Positions 12,211-59,692 of a stretch of DNA of 64,000 nucleotides are shown one piece after another. The number at the start of each line of letters is the position of its first letter. The first letter of the stretch is position 1. The notes under the pieces were generated by a model, which ran no database searches, had not been told where the DNA came from, and saw only the letters and a list, made by a program, of their open reading frames with translations. Source of the stretch: Escherichia phage Killian. Made by a program: the position numbers and the translations under genes. The DNA is taken from sequence record OQ446694.1; one strand, 5' to 3'.

Positions 12211-12746
12211 TTACTATTGCAACAGTATTGTACAGTTTCAATATGAATATCGTAAATTTTATCCATATCAGGAGATTTAACAGGCTCATCGATTATATAC
12301 AGAATTCGAGAAAGCGTTAAACCTCTGAACTTGCTACCTCTATTACCAACAAAACTACGGACAGAATCAGTAAATAAACGGAATCGAATATCATCGCTAG
12401 AATAACGAGAAAATTCTTTTTTAATGTGGTCCGCAGAAATTTTAGCGTAAGATGAAGTATTAGAAAGAACAATAACTGTTCCACCGTCATACAACCAATT
12501 AGCAGCAAAGTTAGTCACAGCAATTGATTTACCGGATTGACGTCCACCATCTAGTCGAAGTGTGCAGTATTCTTTAAATAAATGTGGCGAATCAGGTACA
12601 TAAAATCCACTATTACAAATTTCTTCTACTCTAGCATCAGAATGGTGTGTAAAAGCATTCATCAGGGATAGATAAGGACCAGTTAAAAATGTTCTCATTT
12701 TGTTATCTCTAAATTTGGGCCATTCCATGGCGCATGAATTTTCCAT
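12156..12746 (-). CDS. Hypothetical protein with P-loop-like motif (start uncertain)
   Basis: GGRQSGKS Walker-A-like and YIIDEP Walker-B-like motifs; 5' end overlaps the extended denV ORF. Confidence 0.45.
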
Positions 12747-13260
12747 TTCTGTATTTACCCATTACCGCACTTGGGCTCGACCTTATTACAGGTTGGCGGG
12801 AATCCCTCATAGAATCATGAGGTCCAGCTTGTTCCCATGTTATTTGAATGTAAATATTTTTGCCGTAGTATTTATACCAGTGTGGCTTCATTAAAATTTT
12901 TTCATCGAGTCGTTGTTGACTCAACTTAATAGCTGATTTGCATGGGTTATAATCATTTTTCCATTCTGCTGGAATATCGCTGATGTCAGGAACTTCAGTA
13001 TCTTTTATACTAAACCCACGTTTTAAGCATTCCATTATAATGTCTGATTGACGCTTTCGCAAAAATTCTAACTTATCGTAAAAGAACGTGACATGACCAG
13101 AACCTAAAATAAACTCGGAAGATATTTTAAAATCTTTAACCCGTTTACCATTTGCCACGTGTTTACGAACTATACCAAAAACACGTGGCAATTCACGGTA
13201 TTCTGCAATTAAATGTTGGTCAGCAAGTTCAGATACTAAAGTCAAATTAATACGAGTCAT
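12709..13260 (-). CDS. denV: Endonuclease V (pyrimidine-dimer DNA glycosylase/AP lyase) with C-terminal extension
   Basis: [29 protein letters not shown]... matches T4 DenV N-terminus (catalytic Thr2 amine, Glu23); ORF runs to 183 aa versus 138 in T4 as recalled. Confidence 0.85.
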
Positions 13261-13317
13261 TTTATCTCTCCAAGTAACTGTGAATATACTATCACAATTC
13301 TAGGAGAAAATAAACTG

Positions 13318-13620
13318 TTATTTACCTTTAATTACTTTAGCTGCTTCGATAGCCGCTTGCTGAAGGTCATCCATAGACATACCGAATTTAGAAGCAAAGT
13401 TATCAATTTTCTTTTCGACAGCATTCAAAGGCTTGGCCTGTTTACCTTCATTAGCGCCAGGAAGAGCGAGAATACGCTCTTTGTCAATATAAAGGCTTAC
13501 AAGTTTCTTACGGTCTTTATCGGACAAATCGTGAAATGAATGGGCCTTTTTATTTATAGCGGCTTCTAATTTACCTGCACTCACTCGCGCTTCAGTAATA
13601 AATTCTTGATATGTTTTCAT
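13318..13620 (-). CDS. ipII: Internal protein II (capsid-packaged, CTS-bearing)
   Basis: 100 aa; N-terminal capsid-targeting sequence MKTYQEFITE (gp21 cleavage after I-T-E); position between denV and e. Confidence 0.75.
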   Translation of the reverse strand: MKTYQEFITEARVSAGKLEAAINKKAHSFHDLSDKDRKKLVSLYIDKERILALPGANEGKQAKPLNAVEKKIDNFASKFGMSMDDLQQAAIEAAKVIKGK

Positions 13621-13691
13621 ATGTTTCCTTTAAATATTTTAATTAGTAATTGTGAATATATTATCGCAGTTTTAGGAGAAAATAAACAACT

Positions 13692-14222
<531 letters not shown>

Positions 14223-14678
14223 TTAAAAGAGGTTGTTCATTATTCTGTAAAGTGAAGGACCCATCACATATTGCCACTGAGTACGAGGAATAAGAGCAAA
14301 AGCATCCATCTCTGGAATCATAACGCCATCTTTATTTTCAAAATAAGACTCGCAATGGCAATTTCTAAACATCTCATGCTCTACTGGAATCGTATAATAA
14401 AATAACTGTAAGTCTTTATTACTAGAATATTTAAATACACCTAAGTCTTCTAGAAGGTCTGGATTATAATTGCTAAAGCCAGTCTCTTCTAAGCATTCTC
14501 TTCGTGCTGCATCTAGTGCGCTTAAATCAGAACTTTCTACACGCCCCTTTGGAATATCCCAGCGATGTGCCATCATTCCAGGCTTACGAGAACCAGTAAC
14601 CCGTCCCATGAATAAATCTTTATCTTCTGTCATAAAGATAATACCAGCTGATAGTGTTTTCATTTTAATTTCCTGCAT
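14223..14678 (-). CDS. nudE: Nudix hydrolase NudE
   Basis: 151 aa; Nudix box GRVESSDLSALDAARRECLEETGF. Confidence 0.85.
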   Translation of the reverse strand: MQEIKMKTLSAGIIFMTEDKDLFMGRVTGSRKPGMMAHRWDIPKGRVESSDLSALDAARRECLEETGFSNYNPDLLEDLGVFKYSSNKDLQLFYYTIPVEHEMFRNCHCESYFENKDGVMIPEMDAFALIPRTQWQYVMGPSLYRIMNNLF

Positions 14679-18243: not shown

Positions 18244-18807
18244 TTATTTATCTAGTTTAGTTATTATAGCTTCTGCGGCAGCTTTTAGCTTAGATGCAGT
18301 GTTAATACGATTTTTAATTTCAGTATACGCATCGCCAAGAACATCAAGGCTATCAGAATAAACACTTACACTATTGCGTTCGCTATTTGAAATAAAACCT
18401 TTAGTTTTACGATCAAAATCGGTGTACACGTCTTGAAGATCACGGGCAGCCTTCTTTGCATCATCCAATGCATCAAGAGCTTTATTCAAAGCATTAACAT
18501 ATTTTTTAGTGTCAAACATATTCTTAGAAATTTTAACAGGTGCACGTTCAGGAGTAGCTAAGGCAGATTTAGGAACCTGAGCGCCAGATGCCAATTTCTT
18601 AGAAATTTTGAAAAACGCTTTATTGAATTTATTTTCTTGACTCATCGTAAAAGAACTATTATCGATGTTATACATTTCAATAGCTTTAGCTTTCCACTTA
18701 AGAAAATCGCCACGGTCTTTTGGGTCTAATTGAAAGAATACTTTAGTAAGATCTGCTTCAGACGGTAATTTTGCTGCTTCGGTCAAAAATTCGGCATAGG
18801 TTTTCAT
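18244..18807 (-). CDS. Capsid-targeted internal protein (CTS-bearing, 187 aa; IPIII-like in size)
   Basis: N-terminus MKTYAEFLTE is a capsid-targeting sequence with a gp21 protease site (L-T-E); basic, low-complexity mature region. Confidence 0.65.
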   Translation of the reverse strand: MKTYAEFLTEAAKLPSEADLTKVFFQLDPKDRGDFLKWKAKAIEMYNIDNSSFTMSQENKFNKAFFKISKKLASGAQVPKSALATPERAPVKISKNMFDTKKYVNALNKALDALDDAKKAARDLQDVYTDFDRKTKGFISNSERNSVSVYSDSLDVLGDAYTEIKNRINTASKLKAAAEAIITKLDK

Positions 18808-19241: not shown

Positions 19242-19318
<77 letters not shown>

Positions 19319-19321
19319 TAA

Positions 19322-19987
19322 TTAAAATTTCATTTTTCGACCTTTAAACCATCCTTCTGGAATTGGGTCAGTTTTCTTAATACGTTTAGAAACTTTTTCA
19401 TCTAATGAATGAATCCACATCATACCAAATTGGGAATTCTTTTCGCCCTGTTGATGTTTATTTCTGGCGTGAGATTCTTTCATTTTATTAATAGTTTCAG
19501 GAGTATGGGTCTTGCCCAAGAAAGATTTAGTATTTAAAAATTTCTCTCTATACTTAGGATTATCCCAAAGCTGTTTAAACCTTTCTGAACCCATTTTACG
19601 ATATTTTTCTTTAAGGTCTGGGTCGTTCTCAAATCTGGTTTTAAAAGCGGCAGCTCCTTTTAAGGAAGCTTCTTTCTTTTTATCCAAATATTCTTTAGTG
19701 TTTAAATGGTCCCAACCACCTTCACCACCTAATTTCAAATTATAAACATCAGGGCGCTTTAAAAACTCTTCAGTCACAATATTCTTTTCTGACTCAAACA
19801 TAGAGGTTTTATCGTCAAAGAACTCTAATATTTCTTTAGAAAAATTTTCTATACCATACTTATCTTGGGCTCTTTTTAATAATTTACCAGAACCCATATA
19901 TCCATCATCTAAATTTTCGGTAGAATGAGCGCCTATATAGATTTTATTATTAATTTTATTTGTTATTTTATAAATGTAATGGAACAT
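19322..19987 (-). CDS. segB: GIY-YIG homing endonuclease SegB
   Basis: 221 aa; N-terminal GIY-YIG motif (HYIYKITNKINNKIYIGAH); located between tRNA-Ile and tRNA-Arg as in T4. Confidence 0.85.
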   Translation of the reverse strand: MFHYIYKITNKINNKIYIGAHSTENLDDGYMGSGKLLKRAQDKYGIENFSKEILEFFDDKTSMFESEKNIVTEEFLKRPDVYNLKLGGEGGWDHLNTKEYLDKKKEASLKGAAAFKTRFENDPDLKEKYRKMGSERFKQLWDNPKYREKFLNTKSFLGKTHTPETINKMKESHARNKHQQGEKNSQFGMMWIHSLDEKVSKRIKKTDPIPEGWFKGRKMKF

Positions 19988-20018
19988 AAATATCTCCTAT
20001 TTCTAAGAGTATTTATGT

Positions 20019-20090
20019 TCCCAAAATATGGCCCTGGGTGGAATTGAACCACCATCTGGCGATTATGAGTCGCTTGCTTGAACCTTCCAG
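20019..20090 (-). tRNA. tRNA-Ile (anticodon CAU; T4 tRNA-Ile homolog, often auto-called tRNA-Met)
   Basis: Manual fold: acceptor GGCCCTG/CAGGGCC, anticodon loop CTCATAA, T-loop GGTTCAATTCC. Confidence 0.75.
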
Positions 20091-20096
20091 CTACAG

Positions 20097-20169
20097 GGCC
20101 TTGATATGCTGATTGACGGAATCGAACCGCCGACATCCTCATTACAAGTGAGGTGCTCTACCTACTGAG
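20097..20169 (-). tRNA. tRNA-Thr (anticodon UGU)
   Basis: Manual fold: acceptor GCTGATT/AATCAGC, anticodon loop CTTGTAA, T-loop GGTTCGATTCC. Confidence 0.8.
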
Positions 20170-20176
20170 CTAAATC

Positions 20177-20263
20177 AGCGAAATTACGGAGGCGATAGGA
20201 TTTGAACCTATGAGTCGCCGGAGCGACTGCCGGTTTTCAAGACCGGTGCATTAAACCACTCTG
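20177..20263 (-). tRNA. tRNA-Ser (anticodon UGA), type II with long variable arm
   Basis: Manual fold: acceptor GGAGGCG/CGCCTCC, anticodon loop CTTGAAA, variable arm GTCGCTCCGGCGACT. Confidence 0.8.
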
Positions 20264-20265
20264 CC

Positions 20266-20339
20266 ACGCCTCCAGTCTCCGCGGCAGGATTTGAACCTGC
20301 GACATTCTGCTCCCAAAGCAGACGCTCTACCAAACTGAG
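20266..20339 (-). tRNA. tRNA-Pro (anticodon UGG)
   Basis: Manual fold: anticodon stem CTGCT/AGCAG with loop TTTGGGA; 2 nt from tRNA-Ser (dimeric precursor arrangement). Confidence 0.8.
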
Positions 20340-20352
20340 CTACACGGAGTAA

Positions 20353-20516
<164 letters not shown>

Positions 20517-20532
20517 CCATTCTCGCTCTATA

Positions 20533-22636: not shown

Positions 22637-22664
22637 TTTATTCTCCTCAGTAGTTGATAGGGTA

Positions 22665-22693
22665 ATAGTATCACTACCCCATCTAAAAGTAAA
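22665..22693 (-). promoter_or_regulatory. Sigma70-type phage early promoter cassette
   Basis: Minus strand TTTACT-N17-TGATACTAT. Confidence 0.6.
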
Positions 22694-22694
22694 C

Positions 22695-22928
22695 TTATTT
22701 TTTACGAAAAATTGATTTATTTTCTGCTGCCCATTTTTCAATAACTGCAACAGGACCAGTAACAACAATTTTATCACCGTAATCTTCTGCGGCGAGTTGA
22801 CCGAAATTATCTAATGCATCACGAAGAACTCCATGAGGCATTTCACCCATTTTATCTTTCTTGCCGGTGTAAATAAACTCAGCTTTTACATCAGAAGATT
22901 CAGCGATAAACTCTTTGAAAGTTTTCAT
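22695..22928 (-). CDS. Capsid-targeted internal protein (CTS-bearing, ~77 aa) at the ipI locus
   Basis: N-terminus MKTFKEFIAE (CTS with gp21 site I-A-E); start taken at second ATG. Confidence 0.6.
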   Translation of the reverse strand: MKTFKEFIAESSDVKAEFIYTGKKDKMGEMPHGVLRDALDNFGQLAAEDYGDKIVVTGPVAVIEKWAAENKSIFRKK

Positions 22929-22962
22929 TTTGATTTCCATTTGGTTTTGTTTTGATAGGGTA

Positions 22963-22991
22963 ATAGTATCACAGCTAAAACCCTATGTAAA
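22963..22991 (-). promoter_or_regulatory. Sigma70-type phage early promoter cassette with conserved upstream AACTTTGTGAAATTATTTT element
   Basis: Minus strand GTTTACA-N17-TGATACTAT. Confidence 0.65.
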
Positions 22992-23004
22992 CAACTTTGT
23001 GAAA

Positions 23005-23262
23005 TTATTTTAAATCTTCTAATCGTTTCTTCATCTTAGAACCATTCTTAGCGATTTCTCCTGCATCAGAGCATAATGCTAAAAGCGCTTTAACTTTAGT
23101 TTGGTCTCCTTTAAAAGATGAAGGATCGACTGCAGCAGCAAGTTCTTTAATACGAGAGAAAAGACGCTCGGCTTCAGCTAAAGCCATTCCAAGCTTTACT
23201 TCCATACCGTGGGAAGATTCAGTGATAGTAGTTTTTGTAGCAAACTCTTTGAAAGTTTTCAT
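23005..23262 (-). CDS. Capsid-targeted internal protein (CTS-bearing, 85 aa) at the ipI locus
   Basis: N-terminus MKTFKEFATKTTITE (CTS-like, I-T-E cleavage site); AGGAAA SD. Confidence 0.6.
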   Translation of the reverse strand: MKTFKEFATKTTITESSHGMEVKLGMALAEAERLFSRIKELAAAVDPSSFKGDQTKVKALLALCSDAGEIAKNGSKMKKRLEDLK

Positions 23263-23292
23263 TTTATTTTCCTAATTAATTTTGATGAGGTA

Positions 23293-23321
23293 ATAGTATC
23301 ACTACTAAAACCCCGTGTAAA
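23293..23321 (-). promoter_or_regulatory. Sigma70-type phage early promoter cassette with conserved upstream element
   Basis: Minus strand TTTACA-N17-TGATACTAT; upstream AACTTTGTGAAATTATTTT identical to the copy at 22992..23010. Confidence 0.65.
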
Positions 23322-23334
23322 TAACTTTGTGAAA

Positions 23335-24019
<685 letters not shown>

Positions 24020-58273: not shown

Positions 58274-59692
58274 TTATGGATAGGTATAGATGATACCAGT
58301 TTCTAAAGCAGTTTTATGAATGATGTATCCATTACGTGATTCTTGAACATCAACTTCTGGATAGTCTTTCATCATCTTCTGAAGAGTGTAACGATGCAGG
58401 TAGTATTTACTGTCTGGATCTTCAGTTTTCCAATCTTTACCTTCTTCGGTCATTTTTTGGATTTCATCCATAACCCACCAACCGCACCAGATATAAGCTG
58501 AAGTACGATGTGGAAGAGGATGAACATAAGGCAATTCACCTTCTGGTTCCGGAGCAACTTTATCAGTTACCTGAACTTGGCCTGTTGCTTTAACTGTTTT
58601 ACTATCATAGTCGGTTGCTGTAACGACAGCAGTAACTTCAATAGTTTGACTTCCAATAGATGAGGTGTCAACGGTGTATACGTTAGTTGACCCTTCTACA
58701 GGAGAAGAATCTTTCTTCCATGAGTATTCGATTTGTGCTTCTTCTGGAGCATCAGTGACATTAGCCGTAAATGTAGCCGAAGCATCTTGCTGAACGTTAA
58801 TAGAAGGAGGAGTCAATGTAACCTGCGGATTCATTGTCTTCTTATTAACTGTCAATGATACTTCATTAGAAGTAACTTCCTTTTCATTGTAATTTTCAGC
58901 CGTTACTTGGGCTACACACTTAACTGTTTTAGCTCCAACTGTGGTAGGAGTATAGTTAAATGTAGTAGTAGTTTCTCCATCGACCAGAGAACCGTCAACA
59001 TACCACTGATACGTAGCAGACGCTCCTGGTGGCTGTGAATCCAAGGCAGCAGTAAATTGAACTGGGGTTCCAATTACTCCGGCAGCAGGATTAGCAGGAG
59101 TTACGGCTAACGTAGTTGTCTGTGTTTTCTTATTAACTGTTAATGATACTTCATTAGAAGTAACTGTTTTTGCGTCATAATCTGTTGCTGTTACTTGAGC
59201 TACACACTTGATTTTTTTAACTCCGCTTGTGTCAGGAGTGTAATTGAATGTAGCGTCAGTTGCTTCGTCTACAGGAGAACCGTCAACGTGCCATTGATAC
59301 GTAGCGTTTGCACCTGATGGCTGTGAAGCTAAGGCAGCGGTAAATTCAATTGGAGTTCCAATCACTCCAGCATCAGGGCTACCAGGAGTTACAGCTAAAG
59401 TAGTTGTTTGTGTTTTATTTTTGACTGTGATAGTTGTCGTAGTTTCTGCTGTTTCAGGATCAGCTTCTGGAACTGTATTTGTTGCAACCACCTTAATAGT
59501 CTTTTGACCTGCAGGTCCTTTTAGTACATAGCTAAAAGTTGCTTCAGCTCCATCCTGTGGAACATTATCTACACTCCAAGCATAGGTAATAGTTCCACCT
59601 TCAGTTTGACCACTGGGTGTAGCAGTAAACTGCTTGGTTTCATCAATAACTCCTGTTGGGGTTTTAGGAGTTATATCAACTGTAAAAGTCAT
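58274..59692 (-). CDS. hoc: Hoc, highly immunogenic outer capsid protein (Ig-like domains), 472 aa
   Basis: Thr/Val-rich Ig-like repeats followed by a conserved C-terminal capsid-binding region (PYVHPLPHRTSAYIWCGWWVMDEIQKM...); contains an internal tandem domain duplication. Confidence 0.9.
   Translation of the reverse strand: MTFTVDITPKTPTGVIDETKQFTATPSGQTEGGTITYAWSVDNVPQDGAEATFSYVLKGPAGQKTIKVVATNTVPEADPETAETTTTITVKNKTQTTTLAVTPGSPDAGVIGTPIEFTAALASQPSGANATYQWHVDGSPVDEATDATFNYTPDTSGVKKIKCVAQVTATDYDAKTVTSNEVSLTVNKKTQTTTLAVTPANPAAGVIGTPVQFTAALDSQPPGASATYQWYVDGSLVDGETTTTFNYTPTTVGAKTVKCVAQVTAENYNEKEVTSNEVSLTVNKKTMNPQVTLTPPSINVQQDASATFTANVTDAPEEAQIEYSWKKDSSPVEGSTNVYTVDTSSIGSQTIEVTAVVTATDYDSKTVKATGQVQVTDKVAPEPEGELPYVHPLPHRTSAYIWCGWWVMDEIQKMTEEGKDWKTEDPDSKYYLHRYTLQKMMKDYPEVDVQESRNGYIIHKTALETGIIYTYP
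58841..59416 (-). repeat. In-frame tandem duplication (2 x 288 bp) inside hoc encoding two ~96-aa Ig-like domains
   Basis: Protein units KTQTTTLAVTPGSPDAGVIGTPIEFTAAL...SLTVNK and KTQTTTLAVTPANPAAGVIGTPVQFTAAL...SLTVNK; DNA units visibly similar (e.g. ttcttattaactgt(c/t)aatgatacttcattagaagtaac). Confidence 0.85.

Follow-up and report, generated by a model that had tools for sequence, protein, structure and literature searches.

A repeated T4-type early promoter module on either side of ipII in Escherichia phage Killian probably arose by duplication together with denV

We analyzed a 64,000-nucleotide stretch of DNA from Escherichia phage Killian, a T4-like phage (Tequatrovirus); this whole stretch is called the window below. 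In the region considered here, four genes on the minus strand are transcribed in the order nudE, e, ipII, and denV. The identities of these genes are backed by annotated Tequatrovirus genomes that are 99.7% identical and by collinearity with T4. The 2-kb region at ipII shares 99.7% identity with Escherichia phages PBM-1 and UGKSEcP2 and 89% with T4, and it matches roughly 800 Straboviridae genomes. The denV product is 183 aa long in the window because the usual stop codon is absent. Each of the two gaps that flank ipII contains one copy of a short repeat, and the locus is made up as follows.

14223-14678, minus strand: nudE, upstream of e
13692-14186, minus strand: e (T4 lysozyme), the gene upstream of copy 2
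13645-13687, minus strand: copy 2 of the repeat, e-proximal, joined to an internal-protein (IP) leader and orthologous to the e-to-ipIII promoter of T4 and JE01
13621-13644, minus strand: internal-protein leader AATTAAAATATTTAAAGGAAACAT, 24 nt, which carries a Shine-Dalgarno (SD) sequence and precedes the ipII ATG
13318-13620, minus strand: ipII (internal protein II), 100 aa, beginning with the capsid-targeting sequence MKTYQEF
13273-13315, minus strand: copy 1 of the repeat, a denV-proximal predicted promoter module with an inverted repeat, in which GTTTAT-N14-GTGATAGTAT fits the T4 early-promoter pattern
12709-13260, minus strand: denV (endonuclease V), 183 aa, with its ATG at 13260

A repeat search showed that the two copies are 43 nt long, lie on the same strand, and are identical at 38/43 positions (88%), with a start-to-start spacing of 372 nt. 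The sequences quoted in the original prediction were found where it had placed them, and the unit is slightly longer and more alike than the ~40 bp and ~85% identity that it gave. Its claim that the motifs bracket ipII also proved correct, with the copies sitting at the denV/ipII and ipII/e gaps. On the coding strand, copy 1 begins 2 nt past the ipII stop codon and reads TAA-CA-GTTTATTTTCTCCTAGAATTGTGATAGTATATTCACAGTTACT-TGGAGAGATAAAATG into denV, ending 12 nt ahead of the denV ATG region. Copy 2 begins 4 nt past the e stop codon and reads TAA-AGTT-GTTTATTTTCTCCTAAAACTGCGATAATATATTCACAATTACT-AATTAAAATATTTAAAGGAAACATATG into ipII; it is followed by the 24-nt leader and then the ipII ATG. The homology between the copies starts exactly at the -35 box and ends with TTACT a few bases past the predicted transcription start, and the gene-specific leaders begin where this homology stops. 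The leader of ipII is the ipIII-type leader of T4 and JE01.

Only these two copies are present in the 64-kb window, as shown by a search for further copies of the kind suggested with the original prediction. The exact 15-mer GTTTATTTTCTCCTA occurs at two sites, which are the two copies, and a 19-mer core with at most 3 mismatches likewise returned only the two copies, compared to 0.10 expected. Same-strand pairs of 43-mers with at least 38/43 matches occur at three loci only in the whole window. It is next to inconceivable that this is a chance likeness of two stretches having only promoter consensus positions in common, and the idea is refuted: both stretches are AT-rich and intergenic, and T4 early promoters all agree at about 14-16 positions, but the 38/43 matches include non-consensus spacer positions, no pair with at least 38/43 matches was found in 20 dinucleotide-preserving shuffles of the window, and homologous copies detected with blastn are kept across hundreds of phages.

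Both copies have the sequence pattern of a T4-type early promoter and are oriented toward the downstream gene, copy 1 toward denV and copy 2 toward ipII. The predicted promoter elements are listed below.

13681-13686, minus strand: -35 of copy 2, TTTATT
13658-13663, minus strand: -10 of copy 2, TAATAT, with the TGn element gone (GCGA)
13309-13314, minus strand: -35 of copy 1, TTTATT, which is TTTACT in relatives
13286-13294, minus strand: extended -10 of copy 1, with TGa at 13292-13294 followed by TAGTAT at 13286-13291

The layout is GTTTAT-N14-GTGA-TAGTAT in copy 1 and GTTTAT-N14-GCGA-TAATAT in copy 2, and each lies between a stop codon and the next leader. Compared to the T4 early pattern, each copy has 2-3 mismatches, the C-to-T change at -35 among them. 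Both copies have a weakened -35 box (TTTATT rather than TTTACT), and copy 2 additionally lacks the TGn of the extended -10 that T4 early promoters are described as having; these departures weigh against the promoter reading. In phage SA35RD, the homologous element was annotated according to the T4 early pattern 'GTTTAC(N14)gtggTAttaT'. Using the usual 7-nt distance to the -10 box, transcription from copy 1 is predicted to start near 13279. A generic sigma-70 scan (TTGACA/TATAAT) of 11-17 kb called neither copy; such a scan is uninformative for T4-type promoters because it gave 28 hits compared to 24.9 in shuffled sequence. An Rfam search of 12-24.5 kb returned tRNAs only. The earlier description of both copies as promoter-like on the coding strand is borne out by the fit to the T4 early pattern and by T4 homologues that are annotated as -10 regions within inverted repeats. 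From this sequence pattern, we infer that both copies are active promoters in Killian. T4 denV RNA has been sequenced from RNA taken 3 min after infection.

A blastn search with a 55-nt query found the motif at 584 places in 551 phage genomes, about 6% of which have two. One detectable copy per genome is therefore the rule, and these numbers rule out a dispersed genome-wide repeat. We read the loci of 13 GenBank phages and about 27 IMG/VR phages, and in every locus read the copies were at the e/denV/IP locus. A collection of motif copies by fuzzy regular expression missed some, including copy 2 of the window, and is illustrative only. More than 10 different e/denV/IP architectures were seen among relatives, making this locus a hot spot of cassette gain, loss, and permutation. 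Examples are given below, where [P] is the promoter module.

Window, UGKSEcP1, and EPIMAM01: e-[P]-ipII-[P]-denV
T4: e-[P]-ipIII-[P]-ipII-[P']-denV
JE01 and VIPECOOM01: e-[P]-ipIII-ipII-[P]-denV
N2: e-[P]-denV-ipII-[P]-denV remnant
SH-2: e-[P]-denV-IP105-ipII-[P]-denV remnant
SH-1: e-[P]-denV-IP157
L017: e-[P]-IP105-IP157, with denV absent
L013, L015, L021, L029, and L035: e-ipII-[P]-denV-..., with no promoter ahead of ipII
Several IMG/VR phages: ipII paralogues on either side of denV

The constant of the locus is [P]-denV, with 0 to 3 IP genes on either side of it. The original prediction had linked the motif to the IP gene, and this link is not upheld: the motif is the denV promoter and lies upstream of denV in every Tevenvirinae locus examined. 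In the relatives L013, L015, L021, L029, and L035, the only copy is the denV promoter and ipII directly follows e with no copy upstream, which is the arrangement that the original prediction had named as speaking against it. We also considered whether the motif always follows ipII and rejected this, as ipII paralogues located downstream of denV (L012, L013, and L027) have no promoter after them.

Several loci preserve traces of how a second copy could have come about. The copy located after ipII in N2 and SH-2 leads into ATGACTCG, to which the final ~70 nt of denV are attached without intervening sequence. The Mosigvirus SA35RD contains a Tequatrovirus-type ipII-[P] block that is 94.5% identical to the window; there, the denV leader is retained in the copy after ipII, and the sequence then switches at a GGTAAA microhomology to that found downstream of denV. 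ZCEC14 has the promoter and a 46-codon denV fragment upstream of ipIII, and 27 nt of the T4 ipII leader are identical to the junction between the denV 3' end and ipII in N2. L017 has a PinkRuby-type locus minus denV in which the promoter is fused to an IP leader. The denV remnants beside supernumerary copies indicate that the repeats result from duplication and are not demonstrably its cause. Based on these results, we think it probable that the motif is a ~43-bp T4-type early promoter module, extending from -35 to about +7, that was duplicated as a [promoter-denV] unit around one or more IP genes. The motif would then be present twice in Killian because the upstream denV body was deleted after this duplication. 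The proposed order of these duplication and deletion steps rests on parsimony across the 13 GenBank and about 27 IMG/VR loci. According to this model, copy 1 would be the working promoter of the retained denV, and copy 2 would be the e-proximal denV promoter that lost its denV and is now fused to an IP leader. Copy 2 would presumably give ipII early transcription of its own, with its hairpin no longer maintained. With direct repeats of 43 bp lying 372 bp apart and very active phage recombination, unequal exchange between the copies may occur, as a by-product only.

The two copies differ in their predicted RNA structure. The features of the structure at copy 1 are listed below.

13259-13315, minus strand: predicted hairpin of the read-through RNA (RNA fold)
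13268-13271, minus strand: denV Shine-Dalgarno GGAG, within the 3' arm of the hairpin

In the predicted outer helix, UUUCUCC of the promoter spacer (13303-13309) pairs with GGAGAGA of the denV Shine-Dalgarno region (13265-13271). The predicted inner helix, AAUUGUGA/UCACAGUU, pairs 13292-13301 with 13273-13283 and has the -10 box inside. Copy 1 with the denV leader folds at -20.1 to -20.7 kcal/mol (z = -4.4), with 0/200 shuffles as stable. By contrast, copy 2 folds at about -2 kcal/mol (z = +1.5), so its hairpin has decayed. Thus, an early promoter pattern and a stable stem-loop are combined in one element in copy 1 and not in copy 2.

We examined whether this pairing is conserved among denV loci that were drawn from IMG/VR by a DenV search, a search there with IPII having given 6 loci only. 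The pattern GTTTAC-N16/17-TAnnnT is found upstream of denV in 22/22 T4-like IMG/VR loci, in which DenV is 54-99% identical. Among unique denV leaders from the IMG/VR and GenBank set, GGAG pairs with an upstream CTCC (anti-SD) in 28 of 30, and the anti-SD arm of these leaders lies before or at the predicted promoter start: within the spacer in 'type A' leaders, and past the -10 box but not beyond the predicted start in 'type B' leaders. The arm sequences vary by lineage (CUCCUGUAG/CUACAGGAG, UUCCUCCAAG/CUUGGAGGAA, and AUCUCCGUUUG/CAAACGGAGAU). Across 16 type-A leaders, 86.5% of the positions of the anti-SD:SD helix are paired compared to 68.6 +/- 2.3 in column shuffles (0/500), both sides change in 7/12 pairs, and the covariation score is 0.488 compared to 0.194 (0/500). 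Registers slid by 1-3 columns gave at most 54% pairing; the arms were anchored on CTCC:GGAG from minimum free energy folds, which somewhat favours the tested register. These results indicate that the denV Shine-Dalgarno is predicted to be paired in a stable helix of the longer transcript and that this pairing is conserved with covariation in relatives.

This arrangement suggests a possible mode of regulation. The 5' arm (UUUCUCC...) is in the spacer of copy 1, upstream of the predicted start, and the 3' arm holds the denV Shine-Dalgarno. Read-through RNAs from e or ipII would form the hairpin and mask the denV ribosome-binding site; RNAs started at copy 1 would lack the 5' arm and therefore should be translatable. 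A RegB study reported that the denV GGAG resists RegB and that the structure around GGAG was unchanged in its denV RNAs, a point against masking whose weight depends on where the 5' ends of those constructs lie. A broader proposal joins two statements: that the denV promoter of Tevenvirinae is 'self-licensing', and that all of the architectures are deletion derivatives of tandem [promoter-denV-IP] arrays. We offer this joint proposal tentatively and lean slightly against both parts holding together. If the first is true, denV would be translated from its own early transcripts only and would be masked on e/IP read-through RNA, mirroring the logic of gene e and soc at a place where the e and IP genes are heavily expressed. 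If the second is true, denV with its promoter would serve as the site where new internal-protein (anti-defence) genes land, with the flanking motifs as scars.

The symmetry of copy 1 could be read in other ways. The sequence AATTGTGATAGTATATTCACAATT in copy 1 contains TGTGA-N8-TCACA over the -10 box, which could be an operator for a dimeric DNA-binding protein. The paired change among phages from AATTGTGA/TCACAATT to AACTGTGA/TCACAGTT is symmetric and therefore fits a palindromic operator as well as a hairpin. TGTGA and TCACA resemble the half-sites of CRP, here with an 8-nt rather than a 6-nt spacing. This spacing is not the canonical one for CRP, and copy 2 lacks the symmetry. Furthermore, other Tevenvirinae denV promoters keep the hairpin and the SD pairing with entirely different arms and no TGTGA, pointing to an RNA or DNA structure rather than to the site of one protein. 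An operator is thus very improbable.

The inverted repeats could also be terminators or attenuators of the e and ipII transcripts, with the promoter-like hexamers incidental or secondary. The T4 early region from 58.3 to 65.5 kb is found in sequence record X04567, which we take to be that of Valerie et al. 1986. In this record, inverted repeats A/A', B/B', and C/C' follow e, ipIII, and ipII and are called potential terminators of these genes; each contains a potential -10 region of the next gene (IpIII, IpII, and denV, respectively), and the denV ribosome-binding site is inside C'. For the homologous element of SA35RD, its annotators found a rho-independent terminator predicted by WebGeSTer, and the stem-loops of the promoter-early stem-loop elements (PeSLs) of RB49 terminate transcription in a reporter assay. 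However, neither hairpin in the window is followed by a U-tract, and a scan of 11-17 kb for terminators gave no hit at the two motifs. Copy 2 is essentially without a hairpin and has kept its promoter hexamers, and the helix that is conserved across genera holds the Shine-Dalgarno, its position relative to the upstream stop codon being variable. We therefore consider a terminator unlikely to be the primary function, though distinctly less so than an operator.

The strongest alternative to a promoter module duplicated with denV comes from the PeSL model, in which the repeats are primarily homology for recombination, ipII is excised as a mini-circle, deleted, or inserted, and the motif is the vehicle. 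This model is published, is backed by inverse-PCR evidence of mini-circles in RB49/phi1, and has been extended to T4/PST and to IP loci. The e/denV/IP locus is extremely plastic, and an ipII-plus-motif block that is 94.5% identical to the window is present in a Mosigvirus. In addition, of the three loci in the window that have strong direct repeats, two enclose IP-like genes, the other IP locus being:

22652-22722, 22950-23020, and 23280-23350, minus strand: second repeat family, predicted early promoter and hairpin modules

This second family (22652-23350) flanks two IP-like genes encoding 85 aa and 77/81 aa; it is unrelated in sequence to the 43-nt family, so that its support is at the level of the class. 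Finally, the derived C-to-T change at -35 is in both copies of the window-type phages, and C is found in all copies elsewhere. This shared change is compatible with gene conversion and is the only hint of exchange between the copies, but it is a single site for which we roughly estimate the probability of coincidence at about 7%.

Other observations argue against the motif as the primary vehicle. Some relatives have ipII without the upstream copy, most genomes have one detectable copy, and the rearrangement junctions map to the motif's 3' edge or into denV, with none within the motif. The loss of ipIII, the one deletion of this lineage that can be reconstructed, used a different repeat. The 5' regions of ipIII and ipII in T4 share a perfect 47-nt repeat, 697 bp apart, that comprises the Shine-Dalgarno and the capsid-targeting codons. 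With this T4 repeat and the ipIII-type leader of ipII in the window, the ipIII loss maps to the leader/capsid-targeting sequence and not to the 43-nt motif. Laboratory-evolved T4 repeatedly loses ipIII, with deletions of 0.7 kb and larger (Srikant et al. 2022). We therefore regard the recombination model as doubtful, although it fares better than the terminator. As for the suggestion in the original prediction that such repeats could mediate cassette exchange or deletion, the locus is indeed a hot spot of gain, loss, and permutation, but the reconstructable ipIII loss maps to the IP leader/capsid-targeting repeat. Exchange of IP genes by such repeats is a published hypothesis that is partly supported here.

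Internal proteins are injected and act against host defence; IPI blocks GmrSD, and on E. coli ECOR17 the phage requires IPIII. The gain, loss, or swapping of IP genes is therefore relevant to host range and to how therapy phages are designed. At the locus described here, the movement of IP genes around a fixed [promoter-denV] unit goes along with short repeated regulatory sequences. Since this picture is already in the literature, our finding mainly re-identifies it in another T4 relative.

The promoter module, duplicated with denV as we favour, can be compared with three sets of known elements. The first comprises the T4 elements in X04567, which are orthologous to the window copies and share the plan of a stem-loop after each gene with the next -10 region in or near the loop. 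Between the T4 e-to-ipIII copy and the window consensus, 2/43 positions differ, and the T4 denV-proximal copy has a different stem sequence, CTCCTGTAG/CTACAGGAG. T4 has three copies and ipIII; in the window there are two copies, which resemble each other far more closely, and the stem of copy 2 has been lost.

The second set is the PeSLs, which flank variable ORFs in RB49/phi1 and recombine into mini-circles (Arbiol 2010), with similar elements reported for PST/T4 and nt-1/KVP40 (Arbiol 2010; Comeau 2014). PeSLs are intergenic composites of early promoter, stem-loop, Shine-Dalgarno, and start codon in hyperplastic regions, and their stem-loop often overlaps the -10 box or is located in the spacer that separates it from the -35 box. 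They lie near indels between close relatives and are the proposed mediators of modular shuffling. The window elements likewise have a Shine-Dalgarno and start codon at the 3' end, as in the ipII leader AAGGAAACAT followed by the ATG at 13620, and a hyperplastic location next to indels between relatives. According to Arbiol et al. 2010, Repoila et al. 1994 saw 'PeSL-like sequences' at two variable T-even IP loci, namely T4-type early promoters with weak AT-rich stem-loops by variable IP genes at both loci. The window shows exactly this picture at 13.3-13.7 kb and 22.6-23.4 kb, the individual identities following the 2010 description. The T-even IP elements are analogues and not homologues of the RB49 PeSLs (Arbiol 2010): they lack a G/C-rich stem and have T4-type boxes rather than near-perfect sigma-70 boxes. 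In addition, the 43-nt motif is locus-specific with 1-3 copies per genome, whereas RB49-type PeSLs are a dispersed family.

The third set consists of T4 genes with a sequestered ribosome-binding site, for which e, soc, 49, and I-TevI are named in a review of T4 translational control; denV is not among them, which counts against masking. In the leaders of these genes, longer transcripts initiated upstream hide the Shine-Dalgarno or the AUG in a helix, and transcripts from a promoter within this structure have no 5' arm and undergo translation. Copy 1 is predicted to have a like geometry. In e, soc, 49, and I-TevI, however, it is early transcripts that are masked and a late promoter that lies inside the structure, whereas the internal promoter of denV copy 1 would be early, so that the masked transcripts would be the read-through ones, late ones included. 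X04567 and the PeSL papers together place the repeat among elements of a known kind at a well-studied locus. The observation is confirmed, its interpretation is partly supported, and the element was already known; what is modestly new relative to these systems is a denV promoter design in which anti-SD and SD are conserved and covary across Tevenvirinae, together with an explicit model that explains the locus by duplication scars.

In T4 (AF158101), two internal protein (IP) genes share a repeat other than the promoter motif. On the minus strand of T4, the 5' regions of ipIII and ipII share a perfect 47-nt direct repeat (ATTTAAAGGAAACATATGAAAACATATCAAGAATTTATTGCCGAAGC) that comprises the Shine-Dalgarno sequence (SD) and capsid-targeting codons, and that exceeds the promoter repeat in both length and cleanness. 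The two copies lie 697 bp apart. Experimental evolution of T4 yielded ipIII deletions of ~0.7 kb, for which this repeat is a likely substrate.

The RB69-like Mosigvirus vB_EcoM_SA35RD (OL960577) carries a Tequatrovirus-type block of ipII and promoter at 1203-1620 with 94.5% identity to the window. This block is without denV, deleted at a GGTAAA microhomology, and sits downstream of the phage's own denV. The block is evidence of its transfer between genera. The T4-like contig IMGVR_UViG_2938479101_000005 has the order e-[P]-IP105-IP157, where [P] is a copy of the 43-nt promoter motif; here the promoter is joined to an IP leader and denV is absent from the e/IP locus. In the T4 mutant clone T4_3t3 (OL964735), a 100-bp deletion at the ipII/denV boundary has removed the ipII stop, the entire denV promoter and hairpin, and denV codons 1-14, leaving the junction GATAAA|CTGACC with almost no microhomology.

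The denV gene itself (12709-13260, minus strand) encodes 183 aa in the window and in its relatives UGKSEcP1 and EPIMAM01 versus the usual 138 aa. At the position of the normal stop codon (TAA within ATTTAAATAACATGG) there is a CAA, which fuses denV in frame to a small downstream ORF (MRDSRQPV...).

The 43-nt motif contains an inner palindrome, TGTGA-N8-TCACA (13279-13297), with half-sites that presumably resemble the CRP type at a non-canonical spacing. In the ipII-proximal copy of T4 there is a perfect 14-bp palindrome (TCCTAGAATTGTGA...TCACAATTCTAGGA), and the two strands read almost alike. The geometry of the denV promoter, in which one arm, located between the -35 and -10 boxes, pairs with a stretch downstream of the start, recurs in several other T4-type early promoters of the window:

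987, 5687, 10698, 17739 (also 2428, 6499), minus strand, predicted promoter starts with denV-like geometry

At start 987, for example, the arms are CTGTTCCTC/GGAGGAACAG (-25.5 kcal/mol). The downstream stretch contains the SD of the next gene in three of these promoters, and anti-SD arms embedded in promoters may be a general trait of the window's early region.

The other IP locus of the window (22652-23350, minus strand) contains a second repeat family of three ~71-nt copies that flank two IP-like genes:

22652-22722, minus strand, repeat copy (61%)
22695-22940, minus strand, IP-like gene, 77/81 aa
22950-23020, minus strand, repeat copy
23005-23262, minus strand, IP-like gene, 85 aa
23280-23350, minus strand, repeat copy (89%)

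In each copy, a TAGGGT/ACCCTA hairpin surrounds the -10 box of a predicted T4-type early promoter. These repeats are unrelated in sequence to the 43-nt motif except at promoter consensus positions. A further IP-like gene adjoins a tRNA cluster, and no T4-type early promoter was found directly upstream of this gene:

18244-18807, minus strand, IP-like gene, 187 aa (MKTYAEFLTEA...)
19245-20526, cluster of seven tRNA genes

A capsid gene holds a duplication:

58274-59692, minus strand, Hoc-like outer capsid protein, 472 aa

This gene contains a 276-nt tandem duplication (58835-59110 and 59123-59398, 79% identity) that codes for an additional Ig-like domain. The Hoc protein of T4 is shorter than this Hoc-like protein.
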